Assembly (NCBI GenBank): GCA_038087875.1
Contig: CM075987.1
Span: 23,376,001 to 23,440,000 of the forward strand
DNA: 64,000 nucleotides
Origin: Malacoraja senta
Taxonomy: Eukaryota
Reading direction: 5' to 3'
Below the pieces are notes generated by a model, which saw nothing but the letters and a program-made list of their open reading frames with translations, was not told where the DNA came from and searched no databases. How positions within the stretch are numbered: the first letter of the stretch is position 1; each line of letters opens with the position of its first letter. Positions 2,496 through 59,008 of the stretch are shown piece by piece. The position numbers and the translations under genes are program-made.

Positions 2496-3568
2496 AGGGC
2501 CTGTCCCACTTGGCCAACATTTGCGCGCCATTTACGCGACCTTGTCGTAGCGTTGAGACGTACGGGCAGCGTGTGGGCCGCGCGGGACGGTCGCATGGAG
2601 AAGCGCGGAGAGGTATGGAGTTGACCGCGGTATCGCGCGCCGCTCCAGGATTTTGTAGGGCACAAAATCTTCGCGCGCCTCCGGCGTGACGTATCGCGTA
2701 CGCACGCGTGCGTATTGCGGTCGCACGCTGACGTCCTGATCTCGTACGTGTAGCGCGTGGTGACGCATGATTACGTCACCGTGCATAACCATGTGCCGCC
2801 GCGCGCCGCCCATACGCAGTCGGCCCGCCTTTTACCCGTCATGGATATAAGCGCGTGCGATTTAAAAATCTGCACAGTTTCGTAGTGGAAATGGTGAACA
2901 CCAAAACACACTAAACCGGAAAGTGCAAAAGTGAATTGATGACTGCTTGGGTCCCTGGATTGTGGGTAAGGAAGAGGTTAAAAACACAAACGTTGTATCT
3001 CCTACAGCTGGATGAACGAATTACATGAGAAGGGGTGCAGTTGGTAGAAATGGAAGAGCAAACCAGATAAGCGATACAAAATGCTGGAGTAACTCAGTGG
3101 GACCGGCAGCAACTCTGGAGAGAAGCAATGGGTGACGTTTCGGGTCGAGACCCTTCTTCAGACTGAAGAATAGTCTCGACCCGAAACATCATCCATTCCT
3201 TCTCTCCAGAGATGCTGCCTGTCCCGCCGAGTTACTCCAGCGTTTTGTGTCTATCTTCAATTTAAACCAGCATCTGGAGTTCCTTCCTGCAGATTAATTT
3301 GGTCTGCAGCTTGCTGCTATTCATTCACCTCTTTTTTTGAATAGGGGCATTACATCTGCAGTTTTCCAATTGCTAGCACCACTCAAGAAACTGGAACATT
3401 TTAGAAAATCACCATAAATATCATAAACTGGGTAAATATCATAAACTGGATATTCAAATGACGTCACGCGCTCCAGAAGGCTGTGCTGACGCATGAAGAC
3501 GCGCGATGACGCGCGCGACAGTCACGACCGGCCTGTCCCGTAAATGACGGCCAAGTGGGACAGGCCCT
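2496..3568. mobile_element. PIF/Harbinger-like non-autonomous DNA transposon, subfamily A
   Basis: TIR AGGGCCTGTCCCACTTGGCC / GGCCAAGTGGGACAGGCCCT with TTA TSD (2493-2495, 3569-3571). Removal restores the CR1 sequence TTCAAGAGTGAGTTAGATTTAGCTC. Confidence 0.8.
3070..3290. mobile_element. Penelope-derived hairpin element with hammerhead-like core
   Basis: Inverted arms around CTTCTTCAGACTGAAGAA; minus strand 3134-3161 reads CTGAAGAAGGGTCTCGACCCGAAACGTC. Confidence 0.75.
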
Positions 3569-3571
3569 TTA

Positions 3572-3718
3572 GATTTAGCTCTTAGGGCTAAGGGAATCAA
3601 GGGATATGGGGAAAAAGCTGGAATGGGCTACTGATTTTGGATGATCAGCCATGATCATATTGAATGGCGGTTGTGGGTCGAAGGGCCGAATGGCCTACTC
3701 CTGCACATATTTTCTATG
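3572..3718 (+). mobile_element. CR1/HER1 LINE 3' end
   Basis: GGAATCAAGGGATATGGGG..GATCAGCCATGATCATATTGAATGGCGG..GAAGGGCCGAATGGCCTACTCCTGCAC tail. Confidence 0.85.
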
Positions 3719-4294
3719 AGGCAGTTCACAGGAGCAGTATGAAACACGTGATCCTCAAAGGGGATGGTGAAGAATCATAGTACTCACGCAGATGCTGGAA
3801 ACTTGAGAATCCTTTAATTCTGAGGCTATGGCCTCTGGTCCTAGACTCTCCCACTAGCGGAAACATCCTCGCCACATCCACTCGATCTAGCCTTTCACTA
3901 TTCTGTATGTTTCAACGAGACTTCCCCCTGATCCTTGTAAACTCCAACTGCTTCTGTTTAGGAGACAGTGAGCATTTAGGGCAAAGTCTGTGCAGCAACA
4001 TTCCGGGCCAGGCCAAATTCTTGGAATCCAACGGGAACCATTTGTGGTTTGTCAAAACTCCCTGTGTCGGAGTGGGAGAGACAGTGGAGCATGTTGGAGA
4101 TGATGCTACTGTTTGAGGGGGTCTACAGGAGGGTGAGTGACACAACCTGTGCCTCAGGTGATCGGAGACAGGGGACCCTCGACACAGCGGCTAGTACAAA
4201 TAGAGGGGCTGAATGGTTCCTTTACCTCAGCTTCTGGATAAGGAAGCTGCCTGCGATATTCCCCTAGTATCTGTAACTGAAATGAAACGTGTTT

Positions 4295-4722
4295 CGTTTT
4301 AGTTTAGTTTAGTTTAGTTTAGTTTAGTTCAGTTTAGTTCAGTTTGGAGATACAGAGCGATAACAGGCCCTTCGGCCCACCGAGTCCGCACCGATCAGCA
4401 ATCACCGCACACTAACACTACCCCACACACAATTTACATTTATACCAAGCCGATTCACCTACAAACCTGTACGTCTTTGGAGTGTGGGAGGAAACCGGAG
4501 ATCCCGGAGAAAACCCACGCAGGTCACGGGGAGAACGTACAAACTCCGTACAGACAGGCACCTGTAGTCGGGATCGAACCTGGGTCTCCGGCGTAAGGCA
4601 GTATCCAACCTTGCTGCACATGTTCTGGAAGTGCTGAGATCTTATAGAAAGGAAAATATCCCGTAGTCGGGATCGAACCTGAGCGCTGTAAGGCAGCAAC
4701 TCTACCGCTGGGCCACCGTGCC
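4295..4722 (-). mobile_element. HE1-type tRNA-derived V-SINE with rearranged 5' end
   Basis: V-domain GCGTGGGTTTTCTCCGG..GGTTTCCTCCCAC, (CTAAA)n tail, and B-box region present twice around an inserted segment. Confidence 0.85.
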
Positions 4723-5029
4723 ACCCACACGGCAGTCCAACACGCACAAACAAATCTTCAAAGGAGATAGGAAATGGATCGGTCTAGACCAGTTGAATTC
4801 CCTTCTCGATGTTTAAGCACCATTTTAATAAGTTGGGGAATTCTGAACTTTCGACCTTAACCAAACTAAACCAGAATGGAGTTTTTTTTTGTTAAACTGA
4901 TTTCCGACATATTTAAACTATTAAAGTGTTAAGAATTTTTAAATCGTTATCAAAGAAGGGGGAGAAGGGTGGGCATACTTCAACTAACATTGGTATGAGA
5001 AGGGAGAGGAGGGCGAATGAGATGCGAGA

Positions 5030-5762
5030 TAGGCTCTGTCCGCCTCGGCCTACCTGATCACCGAGTTACTCAACACTTTAACTCCCCTTCCCATTCCCAC
5101 ACCGACCTCCCTCTCCTGGGCCTCATCCACTGTCAGAGTGAGGCCCAGTGCAAAGTGGAGGAATTCTCTGCCTCAGAGGGCGGTGGAGGCAGGTTCTCTG
5201 GATGCTTTCAAGAAAGAGCTAGATAGGGCTCTTAAAAATAGCAGAGTCAGGGGGATATGGGGAGAAGGCAGGAACGGGGTACTGATTGGGGATGATCAGC
5301 CATGATCACATTGAATGGCGGTGCTGGCTCGAAGGGCCGAATGGCCTACTCCTACACCTATTGTCTATTGTCTATTGTCTAGCAGCACCTCATATTTTGT
5401 TTGGGCAGCTTACAACACCGCTGCATGAATATTGACTTCCCTAACTTCAAGTGACCCTTGCTGTCCCTCTCTCTCAGTCCCTCCTCCATCCTAGGTATCT
5501 GATTAGATCTACTGTCCACCTGATTAAATATTACAGATTGAATGCCTCAGCTAACAATGAACCATTCGACAGTTCCTGATCAACATCCGCTTTGATCCGT
5601 CATAATCACACCTTACCCTTCCATATCTCTAGACTCCTTTTCCTCTGACTCTTTGTCTGAGCAAGGATCTCGACCAAAAACGTTACCCATTCCTTCTCTC
5701 CAGAGATGATGCCTGTGTTACTGCCAGAAGCAGTGAGTTACTCCAGCATTTTGTGTCTATTT
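5030..5762 (+). mobile_element. Penelope-like element 3' part (GIY-YIG C-terminus plus pLTR), interrupted by CR1 at ~5160-5380
   Basis: QHFNSPSHSHTDL..GLIHCQSEAQCKVEE joins QHLIFCLGSLQ..MNIDFPNFK* across the CR1 insertion; degenerate CTGA..GTCTCGACC..AAACGTT terminus follows. Confidence 0.8.
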
Positions 5763-6032
5763 CTGGGAGAGAGCCAGACAGGTTCGGAGGTGAGCAGCAG
5801 AGGAGATGAAGTGGAGAGGGGCAGGGGGAGAGTATTGGGGGCAGTTGTTGGAAAGAAGGAGTTGAAAGGGGAGAGGACTGAATGGGATGGGTTAAGAGGA
5901 AAATGGGAATGGGGATTGGATGAACAGGAAAGGAGGAGCTGAAGAAGGGGAATGAGAAGGGAAGGATTCTCAAAGTGGGAAATGGGGGAATGAACAGCTT
6001 CGTGAGGAGGGGGAAGACATTATGAGTGGGAC

Positions 6033-6243
6033 AGACACAAAAAGCTGGAGTAACTCAGCCATTCAGGCAGCATCTCTGGAGAAAAGGAATAGGTGACGTT
6101 TCAGATTGTGACCCTTCTTCAGATGTCTCGACCCGAAACGTCACCCATTCCTTCTTTCCAGAAATGCTGCCTGATCCGCTGAGTTACTCCAGCTTTTTGT
6201 GTCTACCTTCGGTTTAAACCAGCATCTGCAGTTCCTTCCTATG
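6033..6243. mobile_element. Penelope-derived hairpin element with TSD
   Basis: Inverted arms; CATTA(T/C)GAGTGGGAC duplicated at 6018-6032 and 6244-6258. Confidence 0.8.
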
Positions 6244-6339
6244 CATTACGAGTGGGACTGTTCAGGGTGGAATTCTCCAGAGAAAAAGGTGGGAGTGAGG
6301 AAGGGAAGGGAGGATGAAGAGGTTGACTGGATCTGACAT

Positions 6340-6451: not shown

Positions 6452-6651
6452 NNNNNNNNNNNNNNNNNNNNNNNNNNNNNNNNNNNNNNNNNNNNNNNNN
6501 NNNNNNNNNNNNNNNNNNNNNNNNNNNNNNNNNNNNNNNNNNNNNNNNNNNNNNNNNNNNNNNNNNNNNNNNNNNNNNNNNNNNNNNNNNNNNNNNNNNN
6601 NNNNNNNNNNNNNNNNNNNNNNNNNNNNNNNNNNNNNNNNNNNNNNNNNNN
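6452..6651. other. Assembly gap (200 N)
   Basis: Run of N. Confidence 1.
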
Positions 6652-8459
6652 AACTCCCTGGAAAAACAAAGCCTGCCTCACAACATGCAACAGCAGGATG
6701 GTGTGGACTTCTGATAACAGGAAGGATGTGGGGGCTTGGGTAGAGTGCAGAAGTGATGTACGAAGGTGTTGCCTACGTTGGTGTGCATTATCTACAAGGG
6801 GGGGGCTGGAGAAACTGTTTGGATTATTTTTGTTGTGGTGTTTTTAAATGCACGTTCCAAAAGGTGGGCAAGTTTTACACAACACAGAGAATGGCTGGTG
6901 CCTGGAACATTACAGCATACTTTGCCAGCCCACTTCACACGACCTCTTGGGTTGTGATCCCGGGATGAATCCCTGTGCCACGTGAGAGTGATGCTAAAAA
7001 TGGGAAGATGGGACAGTTGAATGGGTGGCCTAAAGAGCTGGTCTAGGAGGGAGGTGCTTGAGATACCTGGATCATTGCCACCTCATACAAGGCAGTGAAT
7101 GAAGGACGGGTTGCACCAAGACTGGAGGGGCACCTATACACTCGCCGGGTGGTTTGCTGGAGCTACTCGGGAGGGTTAAGACTTGTGTGGCAAGGGTGTG
7201 GAACAGGAGCAGCAGGTGGACTGATGTCAGTCTGAAGAAGCGTCTCGACCCGAAACGTCACCCATTCCTTCTATGCAGAGATGCTGCCTGTCCGCTGAGT
7301 TACTCCAGCATTTTGTGTCTATCTTCGGAGTGAGTGAGGAGATGGTGGAGGTTAGCTCGTGGAGGTGTAATAGCAATGACAGGCAAGTCCAGGATATAAT
7401 ATGGCAGGAATGACTGTGTGAAGTATACTTGTGGTAATGCAAGGAGTATAATGGGTAAGACAATCGAACTAGGAGTCTGGGCATGGTGCTTTGACTTTGT
7501 AGTCTTAACAGAGGTTTGGATGAGAAACAGCAGCATAATGTTCCAAGATGCATATGTTTTAGGCGTACAAGAGATGAGAGCATTGCATTACTGATTGGGA
7601 AGAATGTCACTAAGCGAGGAAATCTTGGAGATTGTATCCAATTTGGTCATTTGGATAAAACTCAGGAATAGGAAAAGTGTAATCACTATAATATTTCAGA
7701 ATTTTTTCAACGTTTAAGAAGCATTTAGACAGGTGCATCGATAGGGTAGGTTTAGGGGATATGGGGCCAAAAGCAGGCAGGTGGGACTAGTGGAGATGGG
7801 TCGGGTGGGCAAGTAGGGCTCAAGGGCCTGTTTCCATGCTGTAGATCTCAATGACTATCATGGCATTACACTATTAGCCCCCAGTCACCAGAGGGAGCTA
7901 AATAAACGTATTCAGACAGATCGTGGAAAGTTGTGAAAATAGCAGAGTTGGTGCAGGGGGTGATTTTAACTTCCCCAATATCCACTGGGACAGTCTTAGT
8001 CCCAGGACCTTATACAGAGCAGAATCCAGGGGAGTTTCTTGTAACAATCCACTGGGTTTAGGAAGGTATGAGACCTTGTATGGAGCCTGACCAGCTGATC
8101 ACATTTTCAGTGGGGGAGCATTTTGGGAACAGTGACCATAATCTTGTAGGTTTTAAGAAAGTTATTGATAAGGATCTGACTAGTCATCATGTATTGTCTT
8201 ACCACTGACTGGTTAGCACGCAACTAAAGCATTGCACTGTACCTCAATAAACTAAACTGAACCAAACTAAAGTAGATAGGGGCAAGGCTACTCACAACAT
8301 TTGGCATGATCTGGAGAAAGTGGATTGGGAGCGTTTGTATGAGGGTAGTTCCATATCTGCCAAGCGTGAGTCTTTTAAAGGCCAGTTGATTTGCGATCAG
8401 GACCAGTATGTTCCTGTCAGGATGAACTGTAAGGATGGCAAGGGTTGAGAACTATTAGA

Positions 8460-8775: not shown

Positions 8776-8783
8776 ATTATATT

Positions 8784-8935
8784 TAAGAAAGAGCTGCAGA
8801 TGCTGGAAAAATCGTAGGTAGACAAAAAAGCTGGAGAAACTCAGCGGGTGAAGGAATAGGCCACGTTTCAGGTCGAGACCCTTCTTCAGACCAAGGCTTA
8901 TTTCCTTTGCTCCATAGATGCTGCCTCACCCGCTG
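8784..8935. mobile_element. Penelope-derived hairpin element with TSD
   Basis: AACTAAATTATATT duplicated at 8770-8783 and 8936-8949. Confidence 0.75.
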
Positions 8936-9265
8936 AACTAAATTATATTGTAAGCTTAGTCAAAAGATAAAATGAAGCATACACAAGCTTTAGGAAGCTG
9001 GAATCAGACAAGACCCTTGAAGAATTTAAAGGAGGCAGGAAAGAATGTAAACAAGGAATTAAGTGCTAAAAGTGACCATGAGATTTCATTGGCAAGCAGG
9101 ATGTTGCAGCACCCCAAGGCTTTTTATAGTCGTATTCAGAGCAAGAGGGTAAATCGCAAAAGGTTGGTCCACTCATGGACAACGAGTGGTATTAGTGTGT
9201 GGAGGCACAGGAAGTGGCTGAGGTCTGTAATGAATACTTTGCAATAGTAATTACCAAATATTTAC

Positions 9266-9551: not shown

Positions 9552-11259
9552 CAACATTGAGCAGAAGAATATGAATAATAATGAAATTAGGGAGGGCTAT
9601 GTTGATATCTTAGTGCTCATTAGTATTAAGCAGGGGCAGGTCTTGGTCTTTTGAAGAACATTAAAGTGGATAAGTCCCTCGGGCCTGATGGGAGGGAAGC
9701 AAGAGAGGAAATTGCTGGGTGGTGTAGAAAGGAACTGCAGATGCTGGTTTAAACTGAAGACAGACGCAAAAAGCTGGAGTAACTCAGCGGGACAGACAGC
9801 ATCTCTGGAGAGAAGGAATCTGCAACGTCTCTGGTCGAGACCCTTCTTCAACAGTCTGAAGAAGTGTCTCAAACCGAAACGTCACCAGTTCCTTTTCTCC
9901 AGAGATGCTGTCTGATCTGCTGAGTGTGTCTATCTTTGGAAATTGCTGAGGGCTTGATACAGATCTTCCTATCCACTTTAGCTACCAGGGAGATGCCAGA
10001 AGATTTGAGAACAACCAATGTTTTTCTTTTGTTTAAGAAGGTCAACAAGGACAAACCAATAAATAACATGCCAGGTGCCGTTGTGGTCACCAGACGATAG
10101 GACGTATGTGGAGGCTTTGGAGAGGGTGCAGAAGAGATTCTCCTGGAGAAGGGTCTTGACCCGAAACGTCACCTTAATTCTTTTCTCCAGAGATGTTGCC
10201 ACAACTGAAGTGTTTTAGCCTTCAGGAGAGGTTGGACAAGCTTGGATTATTTCCCCAATAGTAGCGAAGGCCGAGGAGCGACCTGGGAGAAGTTTATAAA
10301 ATGACGACAATCATAGATTGGGTAGATAGTCAGAGTCTTTCCCCAGGGTGGAGGCAAGTTTTTTTTTAACAGAGAGAGATATGGGTAACTGGAATGTGTT
10401 GCCAGGGAAGGTGGTAAAAACAGATATTATAGTGATATTTTAGGGACATTTAGTCGGATAAAACAGGCAGGGAATAGATGGGATACATTTAGATTGGCTT
10501 CATGGTTGGCACAGACTTATTTGGCCAACGGGCCTGTTCCTGTACCCCACTGTTCTGTGGTGTATACAAGGGACTCTATTAGCGTGAACTTTGCTTTCAT
10601 CTTGCATGTTCCTGTATTAAAGTGTATTCTTAGGATGTGATGATTCCGGTGCTGGGAATGCCAGCGTTCCGTGCCAACCGCAGGTGCCCTGGAACAGGGA
10701 CTTCCTACTGAATCGGTTGGAGCTGGTTTGGTCGAACACAATGGCCACCTCAGAGAGCTGGAGGAGGAGAGGCAGTCATTAGTGTGAGGCTGGTGGAGCC
10801 ACATATTCAACCAGGCAGGGGAAAGGGGAACACATTTCCTTCTCAATTTGTGCTGAAATGAACCAGTATTGATTTTGTGATCATCCAAGTGCATCACGGT
10901 CAATGATAAGATCGTAGAAACCGTTCCAATATGCGGTGAGATCATGGCTGATCTGTTGCCCATTTCACACACCTCACTTCACTCCTTAACCCAAGATACT
11001 AAAAATCTTTTTATCTCAAATTAAAATTGACAATGACGTATTTGACGATGGCAAAGATGTTGGCAAATACCACACAAAAAATTCACTCATAATTTGTGTC
11101 TTTTGCTTAAACATGAGATCTTTTCTGGAATTGCTTAGCTTGTTAGCAACTCTTCTCCGACTGGCCCTCCAGGACAAGGGTGGTTTGCTCCCGTGCCACC
11201 TCCAACGGTTCTCAGGTGGAACCTACGAGAATGATCCCACACATGAGTGGGTTAACACA

Positions 11260-13183: not shown

Positions 13184-13764
13184 TGGAGCAGTGACCAGCT
13201 GCAATCACAAAAGTAGAGGACGGGGCTACTGAGGAGGTGTTACCACGGCCTTCTCTAGAGAGTGGAGTCACAAGAGTCATTCTCCACTTCCCCTTCCCTC
13301 AAGCTGCCATGGTTCAGCCTCTCCAGTTGCCGCCTTGTACTCCTCCTACCTATCTCGCTTTGTTCCCGACCCCAGTTCGGGAAGCTGAGGCACCTGAGAC
13401 CTCTGGCATAGCCTGAGTCCCCGAACCTTCTCCAAAAATTGCCAGCTGGCATTTGCAGAAGACCGACGGGAAGCCAGAAGAAAACCGACTGTTTGTATTA
13501 CATTCTACTGATGTTTACCAGCCCTAAGCACTTGCCAACCGATGTTAACATGTTCCTTGGTACACAAAAATGCTGGAGAAACTCAGCGGGTGCAGCAGCA
13601 TCTATGGAGCGAAGGAAATAGGTAACGTTTCGGGCCGAAACCCTTCTTCAGACTGGGAGGGTCTTTCCTGAAGAGTGTGCTGGCCACGACCAGGTGACCG
13701 GCAGTGAAGAGCCATCCGTTCTTCAATTTCCACTGCCTCTTGCTTACAGAAATGTTTCATAACA

Positions 13765-14648: not shown

Positions 14649-15070
14649 ATCAGTCTGGGACTTTGTACACTCTCACTGGTGGGATTATGAGTTACAGTGC
14701 AATCTCCCCCCATAACTGATAAACAATGTTCAAATTATTCAATGATGAAGAGATTTGGATGTATGCTCCAGGGAGTAGAGAAAGGACAATTAGTTTGGTA
14801 TCTAGTTCCTGTTGCTCACTGCCCTTACTCATGCTAAGAGTTATGAGCTTTTGAAATAGATCAGTGGCCCAGAATTTAAGTCAAGGTATTGATCTAACCA
14901 AGCCAAGGTGTATATGTTGTCTCCGGCCCAGACCAGTTACCACAGCCACGTTTGTTTTCTCGGGCTCGGACACGTATTGATCTAACTGTTACAGGACCTG
15001 ACTTATGGCACGCACTCGTATATCAGCTCCATTGTTTGAACTGTCTCCATGTAACCTCCTGATGTTATTG

Positions 15071-15487
15071 AGGGAACAGCACCTCATGTTTCGCTTGGGC
15101 AGATTACAACCCAGCGGTATGAATGTTGATTTCTCTAATTTCAAGTAACTCCTGCATTCCCTCTCCCCCCCCCCCCCTCCTTCCACCTTAATCGTCCTAC
15201 TAGTTGTACTGTTCGCATATTTGTAACCCTTTGTTACCACCTCTTCCCCAGCCAACAATGGACCATTGTGGGCTCCACCCTTCCTTAGTCATCTGTCGCC
15301 GACCCTAATTTGTTCTGGCCTTTTCCTACCTCTAGTTCCCTCCCCTCTACTGTCAGTCTGAAGAAGGGTCCCGACCCGAAATGTCACCCAGCCTTATTCT
15401 CCAGAGATGCTGCCTGACCCGCTGAGGTACTCCAGGACTTTACGTCTATCTTTGGTGTAAACCAGCGTCTGTAGTTCCTTTCTACAC
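15071..15487 (+). mobile_element. Penelope-like element 3' end with pLTR
   Basis: EQHLMFRLGRLQPSGMNVDFSNFK* then CTGAAGAAGGGTCCCGACCCGAAATGTC at ~15358. Confidence 0.82.
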
Positions 15488-16819: not shown

Positions 16820-17545
16820 CTAAAGAATGGGTCGACTGGGCTTGTATTCACTGGAATTTAGAAGGATGATCTTATGGAAACATATAAAATTCTTAGAGGA
16901 TTGGACAGGGTAGACGCAGGAAAAATGTTCCCGATGTTGGGGGAGTCAAGAACCAGGGGTCGCAGTTTAAGAATAGACAAAAGTGCTGGAGGAACTCAGC
17001 GGGTGCGGCAGCATCTATGGAGCGAAGGAAATAGGCAACGTTTCGGCCCGAAACCCTTAAGGAAATAGGCAACCCTTAAGGAAATAACCCTTAAGGAAAT
17101 AGGCAACGTTTCGGGCCGAAACCCTTGGGTTTCGGCCCGAAACGTTGCCTATTTCCTTCGCTCCCTAGATGCTGCCGCACCCGCTGAGTTTCTCCAGCAC
17201 TTTTGTCTACCTTCGATTTTCCAGCATCTGCAGTTCCTTCTTGAACGTCACAGTTTAAGAATAAGGGGTAGGCCTTTTAGGACCGAGATGAGGAAAAACT
17301 TTTTCTCCCAGAGAGTTGGGGATCTGTGGAATTCTCTGCCACAGAAGGCAGTGGAGGCCAATTCACTGGATGTTTTCAAGAGAGAGTTAGATTTAGCTCT
17401 TCGGGCTAAGGGAATCAAGGGATATGGGGAAAGAGCCGGAACGGGGTACTGATTTTGGGCGATCAGCCATCATCGTATTGAATGGCGGTGCTGGCTCAAA
17501 GGGCCGAATGGCCTACTCCTGCACCTATTTTCTATGTTTCTATTC
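16820..17545 (+). mobile_element. CR1/HER1 LINE 3' fragment containing a nested hairpin element
   Basis: ETYKILRGLDRVDAGKMFPMLGESRTRG..; interrupted at 16976-17246. Confidence 0.9.
16976..17246. mobile_element. Penelope-derived hairpin element, CCCTTAAGGAAATA subfamily
   Basis: Long inverted arms; 17-bp TSD GTC(G/A)CAGTTTAAGAATA at 16959-16975 and 17247-17263. Confidence 0.82.
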
Positions 17546-19489: not shown

Positions 19490-19985
19490 TTTCTACAGCA
19501 GAGACAATCGGTGATTCTGAGACGGACGACATCATTCCTCAGTCATTTCTGATTTTGCTGGTACAAGGTAGGGAAGGATTGTTGCGAACTGCAGTGGGTG
19601 GGAAAGGCATGTTACACATGACTAGGGCATTGAGGGGAAGAGCTAATTAGTGGGAAGCCGCCACTTTAATTTGTGTTATTGAATGCTTTTAATCGAGTTG
19701 CATTGAAATCGCACCTTTATCTTTGCAAATCGTCCTGGAAATTTTCACCAGAATATAATTTTAAGTTGCAACGGACAATGAACCGGTAAAATGACACTTC
19801 ACTCTAGTTCTCAAGTAGTGTCTTGGTCCATCCGAACTAAATGTCACTCCCTTGAATCATGTATCTGTGAATGGCTCGTCTGTAAGCATGTGTTGTCATT
19901 CTGGTTAGCACGCAACAAAAGCTGTTCACTCTACCTCGGTACACGTGACAATAAACTAAGCTAAACTAAACCAAACTAAACTAAA

Positions 19986-20260
19986 GGTAGACAAAATTGC
20001 TGGAGAAACTCAGCGGGTGAGGCAGCATCTATGGAGCGAAGGAAATAGACAACGTTTCGGGCCGAAACCCTTAAGGGAATAGGCAACCCTTAAGGAAATA
20101 ACCCTTAAGGAAATAGGCAAAGTTTCAGGCCGAAACCCTTGGGTTTCGGCCCGAAACGTTGCCTATTTCCTTCGCTCCATAGATGCTGCCGTAACCGCTG
20201 AGTTTCTCCTGCAATTTTGTCTACCTTTGATTTTCCAGCATTTGCAGTTCCTTCTTGAAC
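19986..20260. mobile_element. Penelope-derived hairpin element, CCCTTAAGGAAATA subfamily
   Basis: Same internal structure as 16976-17246; flanked by AAACTAAACTAAA on both sides. Confidence 0.8.
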
Positions 20261-20317
20261 AAACTAAACTAAATCGAACTCCCCGAACCCTCCCCTTGCT
20301 GATCGTAATCTCCATGT

Positions 20318-25870: not shown

Positions 25871-26911
25871 GAAGCCACAAGTTTTCTTGGAGGGATCCAA
25901 CCCGAAATTCTGGTTTAAACCGAAGCTGGACGCAGAAAGCTGGAGCAACTCAGCGGATCAGAGAGCATCACTGAAGAAAAGGAATGGGTGACGTTTCAGG
26001 TCGAGACCCTTCTTCAGACCCGAAACGTCACCTGTTCCATTTCTCCAGAGATGCTGCCTGACCCGCTGAGTTACTCCAGCTCTTTGTGCCTATCTTTATT
26101 TGCAAGAATTTGGAAGACTTTCACATTATATCGAGCGTTAGTGGAACTGCAGCGAACTATATATGGTTGAGGTCTTCTTGCCTTGGGTGAGGTACCTTCA
26201 CAATAAACAGTAGCTAGATGGTTTCATAAGATGAGGAGGGAGTTCTTTGAGGAGAGGTTGAGTTACTCTGGTCCAGAACGTAAGATGGGATCTCTTTCAA
26301 TCTTTAACCTTCTGATGTCTGACCAGCTGGGAACGTAGGATTTGCATTTAGGATTGAGATGTAGAATCATTTAGAGGTTATGAATCTTTTTGTTTGTTCT
26401 TGCTTCTCTTAAGGATTGGAGATGTTTCCATGAAGATTTGTCAGTTATATTCAATGCTGAGGTTGTTATATGTTTGGATAACAAGTGAATTGTGCAGCAT
26501 GGGATTGGGATGGGAATGCAGAGTTAGAACATTAGCCACTGTATTAAATGGCAGGATGGTCATTTTCCCAATGCCTTTGTACATTCAGGTAATCCTTTTC
26601 CCCTCCCTGTGGAGGTTGGACTTTTTGCTTCAGATGACAACTTGGAAAAATCCATTTTGCTTCAGATCGTGGCAACGTTTTCAAGTATTTGAACAGCGTG
26701 TCATTGGATTCCTGCTGCTTCTCAACCTCCTCGACCAGATCCTTTGTTCCACCCCCACCCTGTGGCCATTTGACCAAGGCAGGGTTGATCTTGCTGTTCA
26801 GCAGGGAGGTGATGAGGACAGCCACAATGTCAGATTCAGGGTGGTGGGTGTATGGAACGAGCTGCTGAAGGAGGTAGTTCAGGCGGGGACTATCGCAACG
26901 TTTAAGAAACG

Positions 26912-35800: not shown

Positions 35801-35877
35801 CCGCAACTTTTCCAGTGACCTGATACGTCAATGATGCCGACAGTCACCGAAAAAAATCGCCAAGTGGGACAGGCCCT
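32809..35877. mobile_element. PIF/Harbinger-like MITE, subfamily B, carrying an internal minisatellite
   Basis: TIR AGGGCCTGTCCCACTTGGCGATTTTTTT / AAAAAAATCGCCAAGTGGGACAGGCCCT with extended imperfect inverted repeat; flanks CTA/CCA. Confidence 0.8.
32968..35800. repeat. 10-bp C-rich minisatellite (CACCCC + CTGT/CCGT/ACAA/ACAT/ACGT/GCAT)
   Basis: About 2.8 kb of 10-mer variants in phase, with occasional 9- and 11-mers. Confidence 0.98.
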
Positions 35878-41650: not shown

Positions 41651-42406
41651 CCAACTCTATTCCCATTAGATTGAAACCCAATAAACAAAACACTTCCCCC
41701 TTCACTCCTATCCTGTAACTCCCAATGGTTCAGTCTGCTTCCTGTCAATTTTGGTTCAATGTTTGTCTCTGTATCTCAGTCCTGCTTTATCTACCCCTGG
41801 AGTATTTGTAACAGAAGAGAGGGAAACATTTGATATCTAATCCATTCCATTCCTGCCCATGGACTATTTGATGGAACACTGTTAAGTGGAAGATTTAAAG
41901 CAAGGTTATTTTTATCTATAGATTCATTGTTTAAATTTTTTTTTTAACAAATGTTTTCCCTGGACAGAAAATGAAGTGTCGGTAAAAAAAAATACCTTGG
42001 ATTATTTAAATGTGACTGGAAATCAAACTGTGATACCTTCTCCTTTTTTACTTCAACAGCACATTCAATGTGTCAGAGATCACGGTGCCGACTTCTAGCA
42101 GGGTAACGCTTGATATCGGGAAATAAAATGTCATGTGGACAATGGGAGAGGCAACTATGAGAGGAGAGATAATCATACACGTGTAGGAAGGAACTGCAGA
42201 TGCTGGTTTAAATCGAAGATAGACACATAATGCCGGAGTAACTCAGCGGGTCAGGCAGCATCTCTGGAGAGAAGGAATGGGTGACGTTTCGGGTCGAGAC
42301 CCTTCTTCAGACTGGTTATTGTACACTAGTATTCTTAGTGGCTTATGAGTGTTAGATTTTGTGGGAGTGTTAGTTTTGGGTCGAGACCCTTCTTCAATGG
42401 GAGCTT

Positions 42407-43590: not shown

Positions 43591-46500
43591 GACATTTGAC
43601 AAGGTTCCACATAAAAGACGGTTTATACAGAGCGGAATGCATTTTCCTGGAATTGATTATGAGATGGCAATCCAAGATTAGGAATAATGGGTATGTGGTC
43701 AGCATATTGGTATGCAGTCTGCAGTACCTCCTCGGGATATGCAGTGGAACGTCAGTGGAGAATAGGGAGCTACATGCTCATGTATGTGGGCAAGAGGCAA
43801 CTCGAGGAACAAAAGACAGATGGAGAGGGGCAGGCGGAGATGTAGGTCAGGGCCACGTTTGCCAGAGGTCTCAGATTGAATACACCATAATGCAAATAGT
43901 GGAACCTCTTGAAAGTAGCTATCGACTCCAACCCCTCTCCCCCCCCCCCCCCTCCCACCCACCCCTCCTCACACCATCCAAATGTTTAGTCTTGAATCAT
44001 TTTTTTAAAGTTTGTAAACTAATTGGGTCATGCGGGTTTTGTGTGAATCTTGTGAATAAGCAAATAGTCCCATCACTTTGAGTAATGGCTTCTTGGAAAA
44101 CCAGGCCTCATCTGAGAGCCTTCACTTGCGGACACAGTTGAACCGATGCCAACACATACCTGAGAAACCAGCCTAAGTTTTCTCACACTAAATTGGCACG
44201 TTACGGCGTATTTAATAGGGAAAGCAGCAGCAGCAGCATCTGTGGCTCATTCACCCTCTCGTACAGAATCATCTATGTACTCACTCAGACACACACACAC
44301 ACACAGTGATACAGCGTGGAAACAGGCCCTTCAGCCCAACTTGCCCATGCCGCCCAACATGCCCCATCTACACTTAGCTCCACCTGCCTGCGTTTGGCCC
44401 ATATCCCTCTAAACCTATCCTATCCATGTTGCGATAGTACCTACCTCGTAAATCTTTAAGAAAGAACTGCAGATGCTGGAAAAATCGAAGGTAGACAAAA
44501 ATGCTGGAGAAACTCAGCGGGCGAGGCAGCATCAATAGATGCTGCCTCACCCGCTGAGTTTCTCCAGCATTTTTGTCTGCCTTGCAAACCTTCTCTGCAC
44601 CTTTTCCAGCTTGACAACATCCTTCCTATAACATGGTGACCAATACTGAACACATTACTAATGCATGCACAGACATTGAACCACAAGAATGGCAAATATT
44701 CTTTGCCAAGGTCCAGTTTGGGGTGGATGGGAGGCGAAGGGCACCTATCCTCAAAAATGGCACCGTCCGTTTACTCGCAAGGATGTTAGCCATTTTATAA
44801 TAACGTTATTTACTCTGCAAAACGAAAGGCCGTAAAGTGCTGCAGTGGCTCTGCGGGTCAGGCAGCATCTCTAGAGAACATGGATAGGTGCCTATTTGGG
44901 GTGGGAGCCATCTTCAGATTGATTGTAGGGGTGGTGGGGGTGAAGAAAGCTGGAAGAGTGGAGGGGTAGGACATAGTGTGGCAGATAAGAGGTGAACTCG
45001 GGCAAGGGGCAGTGTTGGGGCAGATGGTTGGCATCTGTGCTCTTTAATTTTGTTTAAAGCTGTGCCTTGTATCTGACAACTTTGACCTGCCTGGGAGTGT
45101 TTGATAGGTTTCAGTCAAGTCGTCAAGTGTATCCATCACATACGCTTACGAGACGTGCAGTCAAATGAAAAAGTGGCGATGCTGGCAGATTGTGCCAAAA
45201 AACTACAAACATGGCCGAATGGAACAGAATCACATATTCACATATTACATATTTGTGGGAGGAAAAAACAGAAAAAAACAGCAATTTTAAAAAGAGACAC
45301 CACACAACAGTAAATTGGTTCAGTAAAGTTAGTCCCTGGTGAGATAGGAGTTTGCAGTCCTAATGGCCTCTGGGAAGAAACTCCTTCTCATCCTCTCCGT
45401 TTTCACAGGTTTGTCATTGTACCAAGGTACAGTGTAAAGATTAGTTTTGTATGCCATCCGATCAAACAGATAATACTGTAAATAGACACAATCAAGCCAA
45501 ACTCCGTGCAACTGGTATAGCGATGGAAATAATAGAGAGCCGGACATAGTTCTGGCCATTATAATGCAATACTCCAGAGACAAAGTCCAATGTCACCAAT
45601 GCAGTAGTGGGGTGATGGGACAGGCTAGAGAGAAGTTCATTCTGTATGTGTCAGTGGTGTGTCTGTTCTGAGACAGTGTGACAGAACGTGACTTCATGTT
45701 TAATCTACGCTATACCTGCACATACTGCAGAGGAGATTTTACCTTATGTTGCACCCTGAATTTTGATTTTACCTGAATGTTTGGCGGGGCGGAGTTGTTG
45801 GGGCTTTGTGACCCTGTACACAAATCACAGCGAGACATTGTGAAACAAAGACCTAGGTTTAAGGTGAAGGGGAAAAGATTTCATAGGAATCCGAGGGTAA
45901 CTTTTTCACACGAAGGGTGGAGGGTGTATGGAACGAGCTGCCAGAGGAGGTAGTTGAGGCTGGGACTATCCCACCATTTGAGAAACAGTTAGACAGGTAG
46001 CTGGATAGGACAGGTTTGAAGGGATATGGACCAAACGCAGGCAGGTGGGGACTAGTGTAGCTGGGACATGTTGGTTGGTGTGGGCAAGTTGGGCCGAAAG
46101 GCCTGTTTCCACACTGTATCACTCTATGGTACATTGATTTCTTTCCAAAAGGACTTGAGTACAAGATGTGATTTCTTTAATTCTACAGAGCTCTTGTGAT
46201 AATACATCTGGAATATTGTGTACAGATTCTGGCCTCCCTACATAAATAAGGATATACGTGAGAGAGGGGAAAGCAGCAAAAGTTTACCAGATTGATTCCA
46301 GGAATGCTACAAGCTTGTCATAACAGGAGATTAAGCAGAATGGGGCTACGCTCCCATTTGTTTAGAAGAAGAGTGGACCTTGTTGAAACGTACACAATTC
46401 TGAAAGGGCTTAAAGGTAGAAGCTAAGTTGATCTTTCCTGACTGGAGTGTGGAGAACCAGGGGTCATAGTCTCCACATCACAATTGGGATGAAAAGAAGT

Positions 46501-52069: not shown

Positions 52070-52269
52070 NNNNNNNNNNNNNNNNNNNNNNNNNNNNNNN
52101 NNNNNNNNNNNNNNNNNNNNNNNNNNNNNNNNNNNNNNNNNNNNNNNNNNNNNNNNNNNNNNNNNNNNNNNNNNNNNNNNNNNNNNNNNNNNNNNNNNNN
52201 NNNNNNNNNNNNNNNNNNNNNNNNNNNNNNNNNNNNNNNNNNNNNNNNNNNNNNNNNNNNNNNNNNNNN
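52070..52269. other. Assembly gap (200 N)
   Basis: Run of N. Confidence 1.
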
Positions 52270-54454: not shown

Positions 54455-54840
54455 CTTCAAATTTGACCAATTCATGACGAGTTGGTCTCCATTTGTCGTC
54501 TTTTTGGAAAACATATGGTGCAAAACAGGTGTAAAAGCTAATCCGTGACTGCGGATGGTCAAGATTATAAATGATCTCCTATTTTCTTTTCTTCTCTTCT
54601 CTTCTTTTATTCTCTTTCTTCTATTTTCTATGTCTCAACTTTCTTTTTTCATTCTTTATTTTTCTTTTTCACACACTATATATCTCACGTTTTTCTATTT
54701 TTCATTATCTAACTTTTTTCTTTTTCTTCTTTATTTCAAATTTTTTTAATAATAAGAAGCTGTACATAAAAGGTATTATGAAAATATGATTGTATACAAT
54801 TGTACTTCTAATAAAATAAAAATATTAAAAAAAAAAAAAA
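54455..54840 (+). mobile_element. L1-like LINE 3' end with poly(A)
   Basis: KFDQFMTSWSPFVVFLE.., T-rich UTR, AATAAA and poly(A); AGACATACCC duplicated at both ends. Confidence 0.72.
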
Positions 54841-54951
54841 GACATACCCTCTTCCTATTCTCTTTCCTCCATTAGATTCTCTCTCCTTCTCCTGCCCTGC
54901 AGCTCTCCTAACTATCTCCTCCTGCTCGCTGTGCACATCCCATTCCCTCGT

Positions 54952-54963
54952 TTTTTCTCTCTC

Positions 54964-55000
<37 letters not shown>

Positions 55001-56224
55001 CCTCTCCCCTCTCCCCTCTCTCCTCTCCCCTCTTCCCTTTCTCTTCTTCCTCTCTCCCCTTTCCCCTCCCCCTCCCCTCTCCCCCTCTCCCCTCTCCCCT
55101 CTCCCCTCTCCCCTCTCCCCCTCTCCCCTCTCCCTCTTCCCTCCCCCTTCCCTTCTCTCTCCCCTCTCCCCTCTCCCCTCTCCCCTCTCCCCTCTCCCCT
55201 CTCCCCTCTCCCCTCTCCCCCTCTCCCTCTCACCTCTCCCCTCTCCCCTTTCCCCTCTCCCCTCTTCCTTTCCCTTCTCCTCTCTCCCTCTCCCTTTCCC
55301 TCTCCCCTCTCCTCTTCCCTCTCTCCTCTCCCTCTCCCCTCTCCCCTCTCCCTCTCCCTCTCCCCTCTCCCCTCTCCCCTCTCCCCTCTCCCCTCTCCCC
55401 TCTCCCTCTCCCCTCTCTCCTCTCCCCTCTCCCTCTCCCCCTCTCCCCCTCTCCCCCTCTCCCCCTCTCCCCTCTCCCTCTCCCCTCTCTCCTCTCCCCT
55501 CCCCCTTTCCCTTCTCCTCTCTCCCCTCTCCCTCTCCCCTCTCCCTCTCCCCTCTCCCCTCTCCCCTCTCCCTCTCCCCTCTCCCCTCTCCCCTCTCCCT
55601 CTCCCCTCTCTCCTCTCCCCTCTCCCTCTCCCTCTCCCTCTCCCCTCTCCCCTCTCCCCCTCTCCCCCTCTCCCCTCTCCCCTCTCCCCTCTCCCCTCCC
55701 TCTCCCTCTCCCCTCTCCCCTCTCCCCTCTCCCCTCTCCCCTCTCCCTCTCCCTCTCTCCCTCTCTCCCTCTCCCTCTCCCCTCTCCCCTCTCCCCCTCC
55801 CCCTCTCCCCTCTCCCCTCTCCCTCTCCCTCTCCCTCTCCCCCTCTCCTCCCCTCTCCCTCTCCCCCTCTCCCCCTCTCCCCTCTCCCCTCTCCCTCTCC
55901 CCTCTCCCCTCTCCCCTCTCCCCTCTCCCCTCTCCCCTCTCCCTCTCCCTCTCCCTCTCCCCCTCTCCCTCTCCCCTCTCCCCTCTCCCTCTCTCCTCTC
56001 CCTCTCCCTCTCCCTCTCCCCTCTCCCCCTCTCCCCTCTCCCCTCTCCCTCTCCCTCTCCCTCTCCCCTCCCCCCTTTCCCTTCTCCTCTCTCCCCTCTC
56101 CCCTCTCCCCTCTCCCCTCTCCCTCTCCCCTCTCCCCTCTCCCTCTCCCTCTCCCCTCTCCCCTCTCCCCCTCTCCCCCTCTCCCCTCTCCCCTCTCCCC
56201 TCTCCCCCTCTCCCCTCTCCTTCT
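54952..56224. repeat. Polypyrimidine/polypurine tract (CCCTCT / CCCCTCT)n
   Basis: About 1.27 kb almost purely C/T on the + strand. Confidence 0.98.
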
Positions 56225-56504
56225 TTCTGCCCTCTGCCCATTCTTTCTACCCCTTCACACTCTCCACCCACCTGGGTAGAAATGTCAAAGACCAGAGGTC
56301 ACAGCTTTCGGCCATAAGGGTCAAAGTTTAAAGGAGGTGTGTGGGGCAAGTTAGTTTTACACAGAGGGTAGTGGATGCGTGGAACCTCCTGCCAGGGGTG
56401 GTGGTGGAGGCAGGTACGGTAGGTGGCATACGGGATGTGTTTAAATAGGCACGTGGCTCTGTAGGGAATCGTGATATTTGTGTCATGTGCGGACATAGGA
56501 GATT

Positions 56505-56792
56505 AGTTTTAGTTTTTTAGAGATACAGCGTGGAAACTGGCCCTTCAGCCCACCGAGACCACGCCAACCAGCGATCACCCATACACTAGTTCTATCCTAC
56601 ACACCAGAGACAATTAACCTACAAACCTGCCTGTATTTGGAATGTGGGAGGAAACCAGAGCACCTGGAGAAAACCCACGCGGTCACGGGGCGAATGTACA
56701 AACTCCGTACAGACAGCACCCGTAGTCAGGATCGAACCCGGGTCTCTGGGGCTGGGAAGCAGCAACTCTACCACTCCGCCACCGTGCCGCCC
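56505..56792 (-). mobile_element. HE1-type V-SINE
   Basis: Reverse SINE consensus. Confidence 0.88.
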
Positions 56793-57801
56793 TGTACTTG
56801 GCTCTCTATTAGTGTCCTTGGTATCACGTGTAGGAAAGAACTGCAGATGCTGGTTTAAATCGAAGATAGACACAAAGTGCTGGAATAACTTCAGCGGTCA
56901 GGCAGCCATTCTCTGGAGCCATTTCTTTTTTCCAAAGATGCTGCCTGTCCCGATGAGTTATTCCAGCACTTTGTGTCTGGCTTGGCATCATAGTCGGCAT
57001 GGACATTGTGGGCCGAATGGCCCTTTCCTGTGCTGAACTGTTCCATGTTCTGTGTTCTGTGTTCCGCTCTCCATCTCCCCGTCAGCTTTCCCATGCTGGT
57101 AATTGTTTGGCCGTTCACACGGGGACTGATTGCTTTGTTCCTTGTGTGTCTCAACACAGAGGCACAGATGAAACTGGGATGGATGGATTAGCATGAAGTA
57201 TTATTCTGAAGGGAACTCTGGAAAAGAACCAGCATTTGACGATTCCGCCCCCGGGTTTAACCAGCGAGCCACGTCAGCAAGGCAACGGTTTACATCAAGA
57301 TTGGGCTCTTGGCCAAATAGCCAGCACTCCCACGGTGGGGGGGTCACACTGGAGAATGAGGGAGGGAGCAGTGTGGACCAGAGCTTCTCTCCACTGCACT
57401 AGAGGCAGCAGGGACTGGAGTGCGTCGATGAGGCAGAGATGAGGGTCGGATGTTGGGGCATGTTTTTGGCCGCAGCTGTAGCCGCGATCCTGCTTCGACT
57501 TGCTGGGCCCGTGTTCACAGCTCGGTGCAGCTCGCCTGAATGAGACGTTGATAAGCTGCAGCTGCTGCTGCACGGCATTAGTGTGTGTGTGAAGCTCATG
57601 GTCATGTCACCATCGACCCGGGGGGGGGGGGTTCCCGTTACAAGAGGGTGCGTCAGCGTAAATCCCTGTTGTCGCGCGGGATGCTGGGGGAGGGGGAGGA
57701 AACGCTGACATAACGTGGGGTGTGTGACGGGGGGAGGGGGGAAGAGAGCATGGGACTAACACTAGTTAAAGCGCATCACTCCGTCAGTACTGTCCCTCTG
57801 A

Positions 57802-58040
57802 AGGGCCTGTCCCACTTTCACGACCTAATTCACGACCTCCACCGAGTTTACCCTTGACTCGTACTCGCAGCATGGCCGTCACGAGGTCGTAGGTAGGTCG
57901 TAGGTAGATCGTAGCGGGTCGTGATGCTAGTCGTAGGTACTCGTGGCATCAAGTAGGTCGGGCGTTTTTCCTAGCCTGATGAAAAATGTCCACGAGTAAA
58001 AAAGGTGGTGAATTAGGTGGTGAAAGTGGGGACAGGCCCT
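57802..58040. mobile_element. PIF/Harbinger-like MITE, subfamily C, opposite orientation to 47870-48092
   Basis: Same TIR; TGA TSD at 57799-57801 and 58041-58043. Removal restores the Deu-like repeat CAGTACTGTCCCTCTGACAGCGCGGCACTCCCTCAG. Confidence 0.85.
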
Positions 58041-58847
58041 TGACAGCGCGGCACTCCCTCAGTGCTGCCCCTCTGAGAATGAAGGGTCTCTCGGTACTCT
58101 CAATATTGCATCCCCCAATGATCCAGCTCTCCCTCCAGCAGTGAATGTTGCGCTCCCTCGATACCACCTCTCCAACGACGACATCCAGCACGGACTCGTC
58201 GTGCTGGAGTGGAGACTCTGTAAACGGACTGGAACCCACTCCAGGGGCAGTGGCGCTGAGTCCATGTGAGGAGGCGGCCAAAGGTGGAATTGGAGAAGTG
58301 GCTCTCTAGCGCCTCACAGGGGGCCGAATGCGCAACGGCAGCTGCAAGCCACTGCAGGCCTCAGCTGCGGGAGGGTGACAGCTCAGGGGAGCTGAAGGGG
58401 TTTGGAGAAAAAGCTTTTTTTGGAAAGGTTTCAAACACGGGAAGGATTTGGCCACTTTCCTCTCTGCGTCCCTGTACACCTCTTGTTTATTCATCTTTCA
58501 TCGTGAGGTTAGGGTTGGTTTAAACAACCTTCACTTGCTGATCTTACTGCAATGTTGATGTTTGACTTCATTTATCGGGAAACCGCCTTCTTCAAGATCA
58601 CTGGATGGGCTCTGATACAACAACAGCGACCTCTTGCATTTACGTAGCATCTTAAAGGAGCGCTTCACGATGCATTTTCCGACAAAGGTCGACAGAAAAT
58701 GAAACTTTTTGATAAACTGCAGAAGGTCCAAAATAATAAGAAACTGGTGTAAACAGCCAGCTGGTCGGGCAGCATCCGTGGGGAACGAAAACAGAGTTAA
58801 TGTTTCTGGTTAGGCTCTTTGTAAAACAGAATGGTGAACTTAACTTG

Positions 58848-59008
58848 TGTAGGAAGGAACTGCAGATGCTGGTTTAAACCGAAGACAGACACAAAAAGCT
58901 GGAGTAACTCAGCGGGACAGGCAGCATCTCTGGAGAGAAGGAATGGGTGACGTTTCGGGTCGAGACCCTTCTTCAGACTGAGTTACTCCAGCTTCTTGTG
59001 TCTATCTT
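58848..59008. mobile_element. Penelope-derived element with intact hammerhead-like core and TSD
   Basis: Core on minus strand at 58949-58976; TGGTGAACTT(A/G)ACTTG duplicated at 58832-58847 and 59009-59024. Confidence 0.8.

Follow-up and report, generated by a model that had tools for sequence, protein, structure and literature searches.

Minimal hammerhead motifs in a Malacoraja senta locus: mostly decayed 3′ ends of a Penelope-like retrotransposon

Motifs resembling the core of a hammerhead ribozyme recur throughout a 64,000-nucleotide stretch of the genome of Malacoraja senta (contig CM075987.1, hereafter the window). This raises the question of whether the copies act as ribozymes on transcripts of the host gene, or are the remains of a mobile element. 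The repeats are real but ordinary, being mostly decayed ends that carry a known weak, pair-dependent self-cutting motif. Very probably, they are dead-on-arrival 3′ ends of an abundant endonuclease-bearing Penelope-like retrotransposon, whose copies decay neutrally without acting on host pre-mRNA.

The recurrence of the core, reported in an earlier note on this DNA, is confirmed by counts. The pattern CTGANGA-N12..14-GAAAC has 13 matches in the 64-kb window, compared to a mean of 0.17 and a maximum of 1 in 100 dinucleotide shuffles, and the 28-mer core is found in 24 copies with up to 8 mismatches, whereas 50 shuffles gave 0.08 on average. The core that defines the class, CUGANGA ... GAAA ... 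UH, is present in these 13 exact matches, and the four perfect copies, all on the minus strand, are identical with 0 mismatches (Table 1). A second subfamily (B), with the stem II sequence GGGT TTCG GCCC and a UUCG loop, is likewise found as described; its core has the cleavage triplet GUU and a U-G in stem II. For the two plus-strand variants, small corrections apply. The copy placed at ~7231 lies at 7232–7259 and has one broken pair in stem II (3/4 pairs), and the copy at ~15358 has AUGU in place of the ACGU palindrome.

Among 23 scored copies, the unpaired A between positions 9 and 10.1 is found in all, G10.1 in 21 and C11.1 in 17. All elements together (core, G10.1-C11.1, 4-bp stem II, helix III pairing and 2-bp helix I) occur in six. 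The palindrome at positions 15.2–16.2 reads ACGT in the four perfect copies and at 13651, and is the wobble form ATGT at 15358. Subfamilies A and B and distant relatives have in common all catalytic positions, G10.1-C11.1, the additional base and, at position 17, a base other than G (127/128 relatives). The earlier note had treated the extra A as a weakness, a view that does not hold, as an unpaired base at this place is a conserved hallmark of the published minimal hammerhead ribozymes (min-HHRs; PMC4209133). An Rfam covariance-model scan of the window at E ≤ 10 returned 24 matches, none of them a hammerhead; the motif has no helix III and only a small part of helix I. Matches of miRNA type are foldback hairpins scoring far below gathering scores, and were rejected.

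Table 1. Hammerhead-bearing repeats and host exons in the window
Positions	Strand	Feature	Details
3134–3161	-	Perfect minimal hammerhead core, left foldback arm	Foldback 3072–3291, arms 89 nt, 88% identical, 1 nt apart
3163–3291	+	Inverted partner arm of the 3134 copy	Core decayed; reaches tail end
5383–5765	+	5′-truncated element	ORF end 5383–5451, 3′ UTR, decayed core 5657–5684
6030–6243		Foldback insertion	Decayed core 6095–6122 (-); both flanks have GAGTGGGAC
7232–7333	+	Solo unit	Core intact, stem II with 3/4 pairs
8780–8936		Foldback insertion, subfamily B-like	14-nt target-site duplication; GUG triplet
9722–9939		Foldback insertion	Two decayed cores; 11-nt target-site duplication
13624–13651	-	Intact subfamily B core	In solo unit 13560–13659
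15068–15487	+	5′-truncated element	Last 26 ORF codons 15068–15148, 3′ UTR with pyrimidine tract, core 15358–15385, tail
16975–17247		Composite subfamily B foldback without CUGAAGA, copy 1	13-nt target-site duplication
19984–20262		Composite subfamily B foldback without CUGAAGA, copy 2	~94% identical to copy 1, flanks differ; 14-nt duplication within short-repeat flank
22119–22146	-	Perfect core in longer copy (22047 to ~22270)	Pyrimidine-rich upstream UTR; partial tandem copy 22270–22329
25904–26116		Foldback insertion	Core 25990–26017 (-), G-U replaces G10.1-C11.1
29228–29918		Two foldback insertions, 29228–29440 and 29701–29918	Cores decayed
31529–31683		Foldback insertion	Core 31538–31565 (-), one stem II pair broken
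37084–37340		Tandem and inverted insertion	Decayed cores 37271–37298 (-) and 37300–37327 (+); 10-nt shared flank
42283–42310	-	Perfect core	Solo full-tail unit 42181–42314
44824–44960	-	Old copy, another subfamily	Continues into its own pyrimidine-rich UTR
58949–58976	-	Perfect core	Full-tail unit 58847–58981; short inverted arm 58978–59012; flanks share TGGTGAACTT
59344–59477	+	Host exon	Between CAG acceptor and GT donor
61981–62131	+	Next host exon	Tyr/acid-rich

The repeats are the 3′ ends of a GIY-YIG Penelope-like element carrying the published min-HHR class. The core, the extra base and the link to an ORF all fit the earlier reading of a minimal type I hammerhead derived from Penelope, whose helix III is palindromic and of the dimer type. 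It had also been claimed that the core sits just downstream of a Penelope GIY-YIG C-terminus. Two plus-strand copies do retain an ORF end ahead of the core, but the domain itself is missing from these truncated copies; a 42-residue piece from the window matches 0 Pfam families. The C-terminal GIY-YIG ahead of the 3′ repeat is assigned by homology of the ORF end to relatives, in which the hits lie. The 26-residue ORF end matches 26 of 124 metagenome loci selected by core pattern alone (E<0.01), and Pfam GIY-YIG is found in two of three relative ORFs scanned (E 1.8e-4 and 6.6e-4, just under the cut-off). None of the 124 loci matches the unit model of the window at E<0.001, and they are therefore not family copies but relatives, linked through the core and the ORF end. 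A core pattern scan of viral contigs gave 0 matches, and the window holds no full-length element. In other animals, too, this core follows this ORF end, and there helix I covaries, with a mean of 3.2 bp over 66 distinct motifs compared to 1.5 for shuffled partners (highest shuffle 1.9). Covariation is clear only among these distant relatives sharing the same core; among 20 distinct window copies, two-sided change occurs in 0/6 stem pairs. In addition, a Cys-rich motif precedes GIY-YIG in two relatives (L006 and L020). Such a motif is a trait of Neptune and Nematis, and the parent element probably belongs to the Neptune clade.

The exon at 59344 sets the host sense strand as plus. This exon presumably encodes a collagen V/XI-type amino-propeptide, and the next one is taken to encode a collagen V/XI variable region; Pfam, PDB and Atlas gave no confirmation of collagen identity, and no Gly-X-Y exons were found in the window. 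Positions 1–59343 appear to be a single intron because no other exon was found there. The minus strand, antisense to the host exons, carries five of the six intact cores, among them the four perfect ones, and the 15358 core is the only intact-type core on the sense strand. Intact cores make up 1/8 of plus copies and 5/15 of minus copies, a bias that is not significant (Fisher P=0.37), and the idea of selection against sense-strand ribozymes was rejected on this ground.

Helix I is 2 bp in all six intact copies, at the low end of the published 2–5 bp. Its pairs are G-C plus U-A only, and it is shorter than in 46/66 relatives. When seven copies were folded in context, the predicted probability of helix I was 0.0 in every one. 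In the predicted fold, the ACCC that follows the cut site is a competitor for the stem II strand, and the active dimer is predicted to lie 7.9–16.9 kcal/mol above two folded monomers. The 3134 copy is predicted to be buried in the long hairpin of its 89-bp foldback, with a stem II probability of 0.0. With a 2-bp helix I and competition from ACCC, even the ribozyme of the parent element may therefore be inactive.

On one reading, the scattered copies function as ribozymes: pairing via ACGU, either in trans or in cis across kilobases, they would cleave antisense RNAs or the collagen pre-mRNA. Six copies carry every motif element, the family is very abundant (139,362–193,926 contigs per run), which would make trans partners plentiful, and Schistosoma min-HHR dimers and trimers cleave weakly (PMC4209133). 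However, published monomers show no activity, the Anolis ribozyme requires protein and cut-site reads were not found there, and 8/9 Xenopus dimers are uncleaved. Intact cores on the same strand are 8.5–20 kb apart, nearly all antisense to the exons, and the folding predictions are unfavorable. Moreover, G12-to-A makes up 11–13% of depth in four runs compared to 11–14% for three CpG sites that are not in the ribozyme; these depths are sums over contigs and not copy numbers. The catalytic G12 decays like any CpG, and variation among copies is neutral CpG decay. It is thus extremely improbable that the copies work as ribozymes. The earlier proposal, taken as a collagen pre-mRNA with many working self-cleaving motifs, is not supported, with one of six intact cores on the plus strand, partners at least 8.5 kb away and a predicted helix I probability of 0.0. 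Nothing suggests that these repeats cut host gene RNA.

The repeat unit is the 3′ end of the element, with the minimal hammerhead, ~70 nt and an optional ~35-nt tail, and 48 arms are found in 30 loci. Half of these loci (15/30) are head-to-head foldbacks, several with target-site duplications, which measure 9–14 nt; 14/15 foldbacks have only one long arm. The 3′ ends fall into two classes, at model positions 91–104 (21 arms) and 122–124 (20 arms). The 5′ ends concentrate on the 5′ half of the ribozyme and not at the cut site. Only 1/48 arms starts near the cut site and 36/48 reach into or past the core, and the templates were therefore uncleaved. Among arms reaching CUGA, 19/23 stop within 8 nt upstream of it; as read from the locus table, 10/14 single-arm loci end in the zone and 4/14 run past it. 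Another 13 arms have their ends within the core, at model positions 6–17. Foldback centers lie at palindromes (TCAG-T-CTGA and the stem II arms) at 3162, 6124, 26017, 29316, 31566 and 37299. A core-less foldback, without CUGAAGA, has itself been copied twice, with different flanks. Tandem units with complete hammerheads are absent from the window, and the tandems at 22047–22329 and 37084–37301 carry one core each.

This pile-up of 5′ ends could mean that the ~135-nt unit is a separate non-autonomous element or a run-off cDNA. [quoted passage not shown] The stops at CUGA and the single-arm loci agree with this, as do loose ends at 22148–22150 in four runs, which have unrelated flanks (agreement 0.31–0.32) and a 10–15 fold fall in depth within 20 nt upstream. 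The arms ending within the core nonetheless suggest a broad stop or join zone and not one RNA end, short copies have no common leader, and subfamilies with different upstream UTRs explain part of the depth fall (loose end 22151), so that this account is doubtful. A spliced leader was also considered, since a pyrimidine tract and CAG abut TCTGA in 2/4 long copies, an arrangement that a D. virilis intron end resembles; it was rejected, as short copies share no leader. It is unlikely, still more so than a run-off, that the motif is already vestigial in the parent element, kept for joining of DNA or cDNA through its palindromes and not for catalysis. The placement of foldback centers, the twice-copied core-less foldback, the 2-bp helix I and insertion in vitro that is indifferent to ribozyme mutants (PMC11167929) speak for a vestige; the constancy of the catalytic positions, extra base, G10.1-C11.1 and non-G 17 in A, B and distant relatives speaks against it, as do the published motifs of Drosophila virilis and Culex, whose helix I is likewise 2 bp.

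The preferred explanation, that of dead-on-arrival 3′ ends, can be put as a sequence of steps. In the parent element, the motif would be the minimal type I hammerhead of the pseudo-LTR. Judging from published relatives, it would fold only as a dimer via ACGU, probably only with the element protein, in tandem element transcripts. Reverse transcription would begin at either of two sites that define the optional tail, 70–105 nt downstream of the core, pass the uncleaved cut site and usually end on the ribozyme 5′ half, and a second cDNA would often be joined head to head. After insertion, copies decay neutrally, and would be uncleaved in vivo and without action on host pre-mRNA. More tentatively, though with somewhat better prospects than a run-off, the ribozyme 5′ half rather than the cut site may be where cDNAs end and join, the self-complementary TCAG-T-CTGA and the arms of stem II serving as intrinsic sites for stopping and joining. 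Most insertions genome-wide would then be fixed ~135-nt units or short foldbacks, and the core-less foldback would be mobilizable as a unit.

If true, the stop/join reading would explain why Penelope hammerheads are mostly solo and would give them a non-catalytic role in integration. Because the family is so abundant, 5′ ends and junctions can be counted across the genome, and such a count could distinguish a role in cleavage from one in stopping or joining. The record of insertion ends is the part worth keeping, and min-HHR motifs in host introns are not to be read as working ribozymes.

Several known systems resemble these repeats. Non-LTR retrozymes of animals (bioRxiv 10.64898/2026.07.22.740005) are likewise non-coding, derived from Penelope pseudo-LTRs and equipped with a type I hammerhead, but are defined by at least two tandem units with intact ribozymes, of which the window has none. 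The inverted pseudo-LTR and 30–40 bp tail of endonuclease-bearing Penelope-like elements, as described in the available text of PMC3846280, PMC8557442 and PMC11167929, share with the window a head-to-head inverted 5′-truncated copy, junction palindromes, a tail on one arm only and target-site duplications. By comparison, insertions here are usually two short arms and nothing more, and their junctions cluster on the ribozyme 5′ half, a clustering not found in that text. PMC8557442 still calls the role of the Penelope hammerhead unclear, and the review PMC6765202 covers dimer cleavage of small Penelope hammerheads, as reported by Lunse et al. The closest match is the min-HHR class (Cervera and de la Pena 2014, PMC4209133), with the same CUGANGA, extra base, G-C-closed stem II, GAAA, palindromic C-G without loop 3, and UH. 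It also shares the location in a 3′ repeat 100–200 nt behind the ORF, and mostly solo truncated copies with pairs on opposite strands. It differs in that helix I here includes one A-U in its 2 bp, and any activity here is putative. The available text of its Fig. S3 lists no shark, skate or ray, and the repeats add one abundant vertebrate family to the class described in 2014. The Acropora Neptune motif listed among the min-HHRs has a core nearly identical to that of the window.

The hammerhead-like core that the earlier note described at several sites is indeed recurrent. The core pattern (CUGANGA...GAAA) has 13 matches in the window against 0.17 expected, 24 copies lie within 8 mismatches of the full 28-mer, which includes the cleavage triplet, against 0.08 expected, and the four minus-strand copies singled out in that note are one 28-mer with no differences. 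Copies were scored for the core, the G10.1-C11.1 pair, the four stem II pairs, helix III pairing and a helix I of at least 2 bp, and 6 of the 23 scored are fully intact. The plus-strand variants placed at ~7231 and ~15358 are both present, with a damaged stem II in the one and a wobble in the other. An Rfam search of the window at E up to 10, the kind of model search that had been proposed, gave 24 matches with no hammerhead among them; its top miRNA match was rejected as spurious, due to the LINE-like inverted repeat. The motif observation is confirmed, and the interpretation placed on it is partly supported.

Features of the window, with positions on the whole stretch
Feature	Position	Strand	Remarks
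Intact cores	3161, 13651, 22146, 42310, 58976	minus	motif score
Intact core with wobble palindrome	15358	plus	motif score
Core with broken stem II pair	7232	plus	motif score
ORF ends (last codons), two copies	15068-15148; 5383-5451		200-210 nt ahead of core
Composite foldback without catalytic CUGAAGA, two copies	16975-17247; 19984-20262		near-identical 70-nt junction
Shared flank word, 14 nt	8770/8936		foldback flanks
Shared flank word, 11 nt	9707/9938		foldback flanks
Host exon, 134 nt	59344-59477	plus	proper splice sites
Host exon	~61981-62131	plus	proper splice sites
Inverted repeat, 324 nt, 92%, LINE-like 3' sequence	30302-31094		145 nt between arms
Long simple tandem arrays (C/A-rich and CT-rich)	32810-35834; 54815-56331
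Assembly gaps, 200 N each	6452-6651; 52070-52269

The parent of these repeats can be approached through its open reading frame (ORF). Pfam matched no family on the window's short ORF piece. The core pattern, used on its own to scan metagenome contigs, yielded at least 124 loci (relatives), and the window's ORF end matches 26 of the 124 listed (E <0.01). GIY-YIG (Pfam) is found in 2 of 3 longer relative ORFs scanned, with scores just under the Pfam cut-off. The claim that the motif sits just downstream of Penelope GIY-YIG C-termini is upheld by homology of the ORF end to ORFs with such near-cut-off matches. In relatives L006 and L020, a Cys-rich motif precedes GIY-YIG, which is a Neptune/Nematis trait in the available text of PMC8557442; by this motif, and with no reverse transcriptase seen, the parent clade would be Neptune or Nematis. 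A closely similar ORF end is present in three proteins. The predicted proteins P0002 and P0003 join it to a VKOR domain or a G-protein-coupled receptor, and these fusions are likely gene-prediction artefacts or exonised repeats.

Among the matches listed, helix I of the relatives has a mean of 3.2 bp compared to 1.5 for shuffled partners (66 distinct motifs), and position 17 is non-G in 127 of 128 motifs. The second pair of helix I varies (C-G, G-C, U-A). Positions outside the search pattern thus appear hammerhead-like, which, as related motifs are not independent, is support rather than a probability.

Every core heads a repeat of ~135 nt. A profile from the window copies recognizes 56 arms, or single copies of this unit in one orientation, which occupy 4,534 bases (7% of the window); all counts use the 48 arms with E <1e-4, in 30 loci, and leave out 8 weaker ones. 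Their 3' ends form two classes, at model positions (coordinates along the profile) 91-104 (21 arms) and 122-124 (20 arms); the remaining 7 end at other positions. Head-to-head foldbacks make up 15 of the 30 loci and contain 32 arms. Exactly one arm is long in 14 of the 15, and the second arm ends at 91-103 in 12. Several foldbacks are centered on the self-complementary TCAG-T-CTGA or on stem II arms. Among 16 examined, several have flank words of 9-14 nt common to both sides, and in others of them the longest common word is just 4-7 nt. Because two opposed cores also occur at short distance in five metagenome loci among the matches listed (L037, L043, L097, L107, L120), foldbacks near the ribozyme occur in other organisms too and are not special to this genome. 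The composite foldback probably moved as one non-autonomous unit, since its two copies are ~94% identical (15 differences in ~272 columns) and their flanks differ.

Cleavage of the template RNA would leave a 5' end after C17, the cut site, corresponding to model position 30. Among the 48 arms, a single one starts at 28-33; overall, 32 start from 8 nt upstream of the core to position 17, 12 from position 18 onward, and 4 reach into the UTR. The per-base chance of ending in the -8 to 17 zone is ~16 times that downstream, and 19 times when each locus contributes a single arm (29 loci). The ratio is inflated because short arms are harder to detect, and arms belonging to the same insertion are not independent. 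Four runs, each from a different organism, supplied contigs that were aligned to 22040-22285, with depths that are sums over contigs rather than copy numbers and some differences uncounted. In all four runs, loose ends at 22148-22150 continue into flanks that are unrelated (agreement 0.31-0.32). Over the 20 nt preceding the core, depth drops by a factor of 10-15, partly from subfamilies with different UTRs. The rarity of starts at the cut site and these loose ends therefore indicate that reverse-transcription templates were mostly uncleaved and that synthesis terminates in the 5' half of the ribozyme. This half is perhaps where cDNA synthesis stops and cDNAs are joined, a tentative proposal. 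In the portions of the literature available (including PMC2377424 and PMC6765202), no description of the 5'-end pile-up or of the core-less foldback unit was found. In long copies, TCTGA is immediately preceded by a pyrimidine tract with CAG at its end (15335-15357, 22147-22175), an arrangement that resembles a 3' splice site; for Penelope of D. virilis, PMC4209133 (available text) places the end of the intron at the helix I 5' end.

With 100 nt of context, predicted helix I probability is 0.0 in 7 of 7 copies folded, and that of stem II does not exceed 0.16. In the predicted fold, the 3134 copy is hidden inside its foldback, and the ACCC past the cut site, a duplicate of the stem II 3' strand, competes with that strand. 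The predicted energy of the active dimer is 7.9-16.9 kcal/mol above that of two monomers, compared to a median of 6.4 in the relatives among the matches listed. Because 33% of those relatives score equal to or worse than the perfect copies, these modeled energies are compatible with activity in the parent. As to covariation, which the earlier note had suggested checking, 0 of 6 pairs are altered on both sides in 20 distinct window copies. CpG transitions are the most frequent core changes in the four-run contigs, and G12-to-A accounts for 11-13% of depth; for three CpG sites that lie outside the ribozyme the figure is 11-14%. This pattern is consistent with neutral decay after insertion.

The two host exons are presumably collagen V/XI, an identity that Pfam and two further look-ups did not confirm. 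The collagen-like reading of the first seems to shift frame near 59425-59430, possibly because the assembly has one base too many or too few in a run of C. No further exons were found in the window, which makes a single intron probable for the upstream 59 kb. Gly-rich GPKGLF words from another abundant short repeat (8708-60726, several places) mimic collagen triplets and were rejected as exons, being repeat translation; in the tandem arrays, several reading frames stay open for 450-1000 codons.

It is very improbable that the copies work as ribozymes in host RNA. Five of the six intact cores are antisense to the pre-mRNA, a strand difference that is no sign of selection because it is not significant (P=0.37). 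Intact minus cores are spaced 10,490, 8,495, 20,164 and 16,666 nt apart. The collagen pre-mRNA, supposed earlier to be rich in self-cleaving motifs, holds just one imperfect sense candidate, and the modeled absence of helix I in context argues against such activity. A ribozyme vestigial even in the parent is unlikely.

The best overall reading, which we hold with considerable confidence, is a Penelope-like parent with a minimal hammerhead and inert inserted pieces. The parent would be an endonuclease-bearing element with the hammerhead in its pseudo-LTR, and this hammerhead would at best be active in tandem element RNA, as a dimer assisted by protein. The element's protein would prime downstream of the core, at either of two sites, matching the observed anatomy, and cDNA synthesis may pass the uncut site and then halt, or join a second cDNA, on the core palindromes, where the anatomy again is seen and the steps are inferred. 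Inserted pieces would be inert and decay. A discrete run-off unit, with its RNA 5' end just ahead of CUGA, is compatible with this Penelope-like reading and rather unlikely.

The published consensus of Cervera and de la Pena (PMC4209133, available text) comprises CUGANGAH, a G-C-closed stem II, GAAAN, a palindrome and NUH, with a helix I of 2 to 5 bp. Conservation of the base between 9 and 10.1 in that class makes the extra A after the core, previously counted as a weakness, diagnostic instead. The same text describes solo motifs as usual, pairs on opposite strands, inactive monomers and weakly active dimers, and no cartilaginous fish, the group to which the present host, judged by this repeat, presumably belongs, was found among the motifs in its Fig. 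S3 text. In the available part of bioRxiv 10.64898/2026.07.22.740005, 8 of 9 Xenopus dimers show no cleavage, and one chondrichthyan genome was sampled for tandem retrozymes. According to the sections of PMC11167929 at hand, the Anolis ribozyme cuts only with the element's protein, its mutants insert still, templates are likewise uncleaved in vitro, and the Penelope-like tail is the stretch between two internal priming sites. The foldbacks can be compared with the inverted 5'-truncated copy, junction palindromes and 30-40 bp tail at one end of Penelope-like elements (PMC8557442 and PMC3846280, in part). The window repeats add a further member to the already published minimal hammerhead class of Penelope-like elements.
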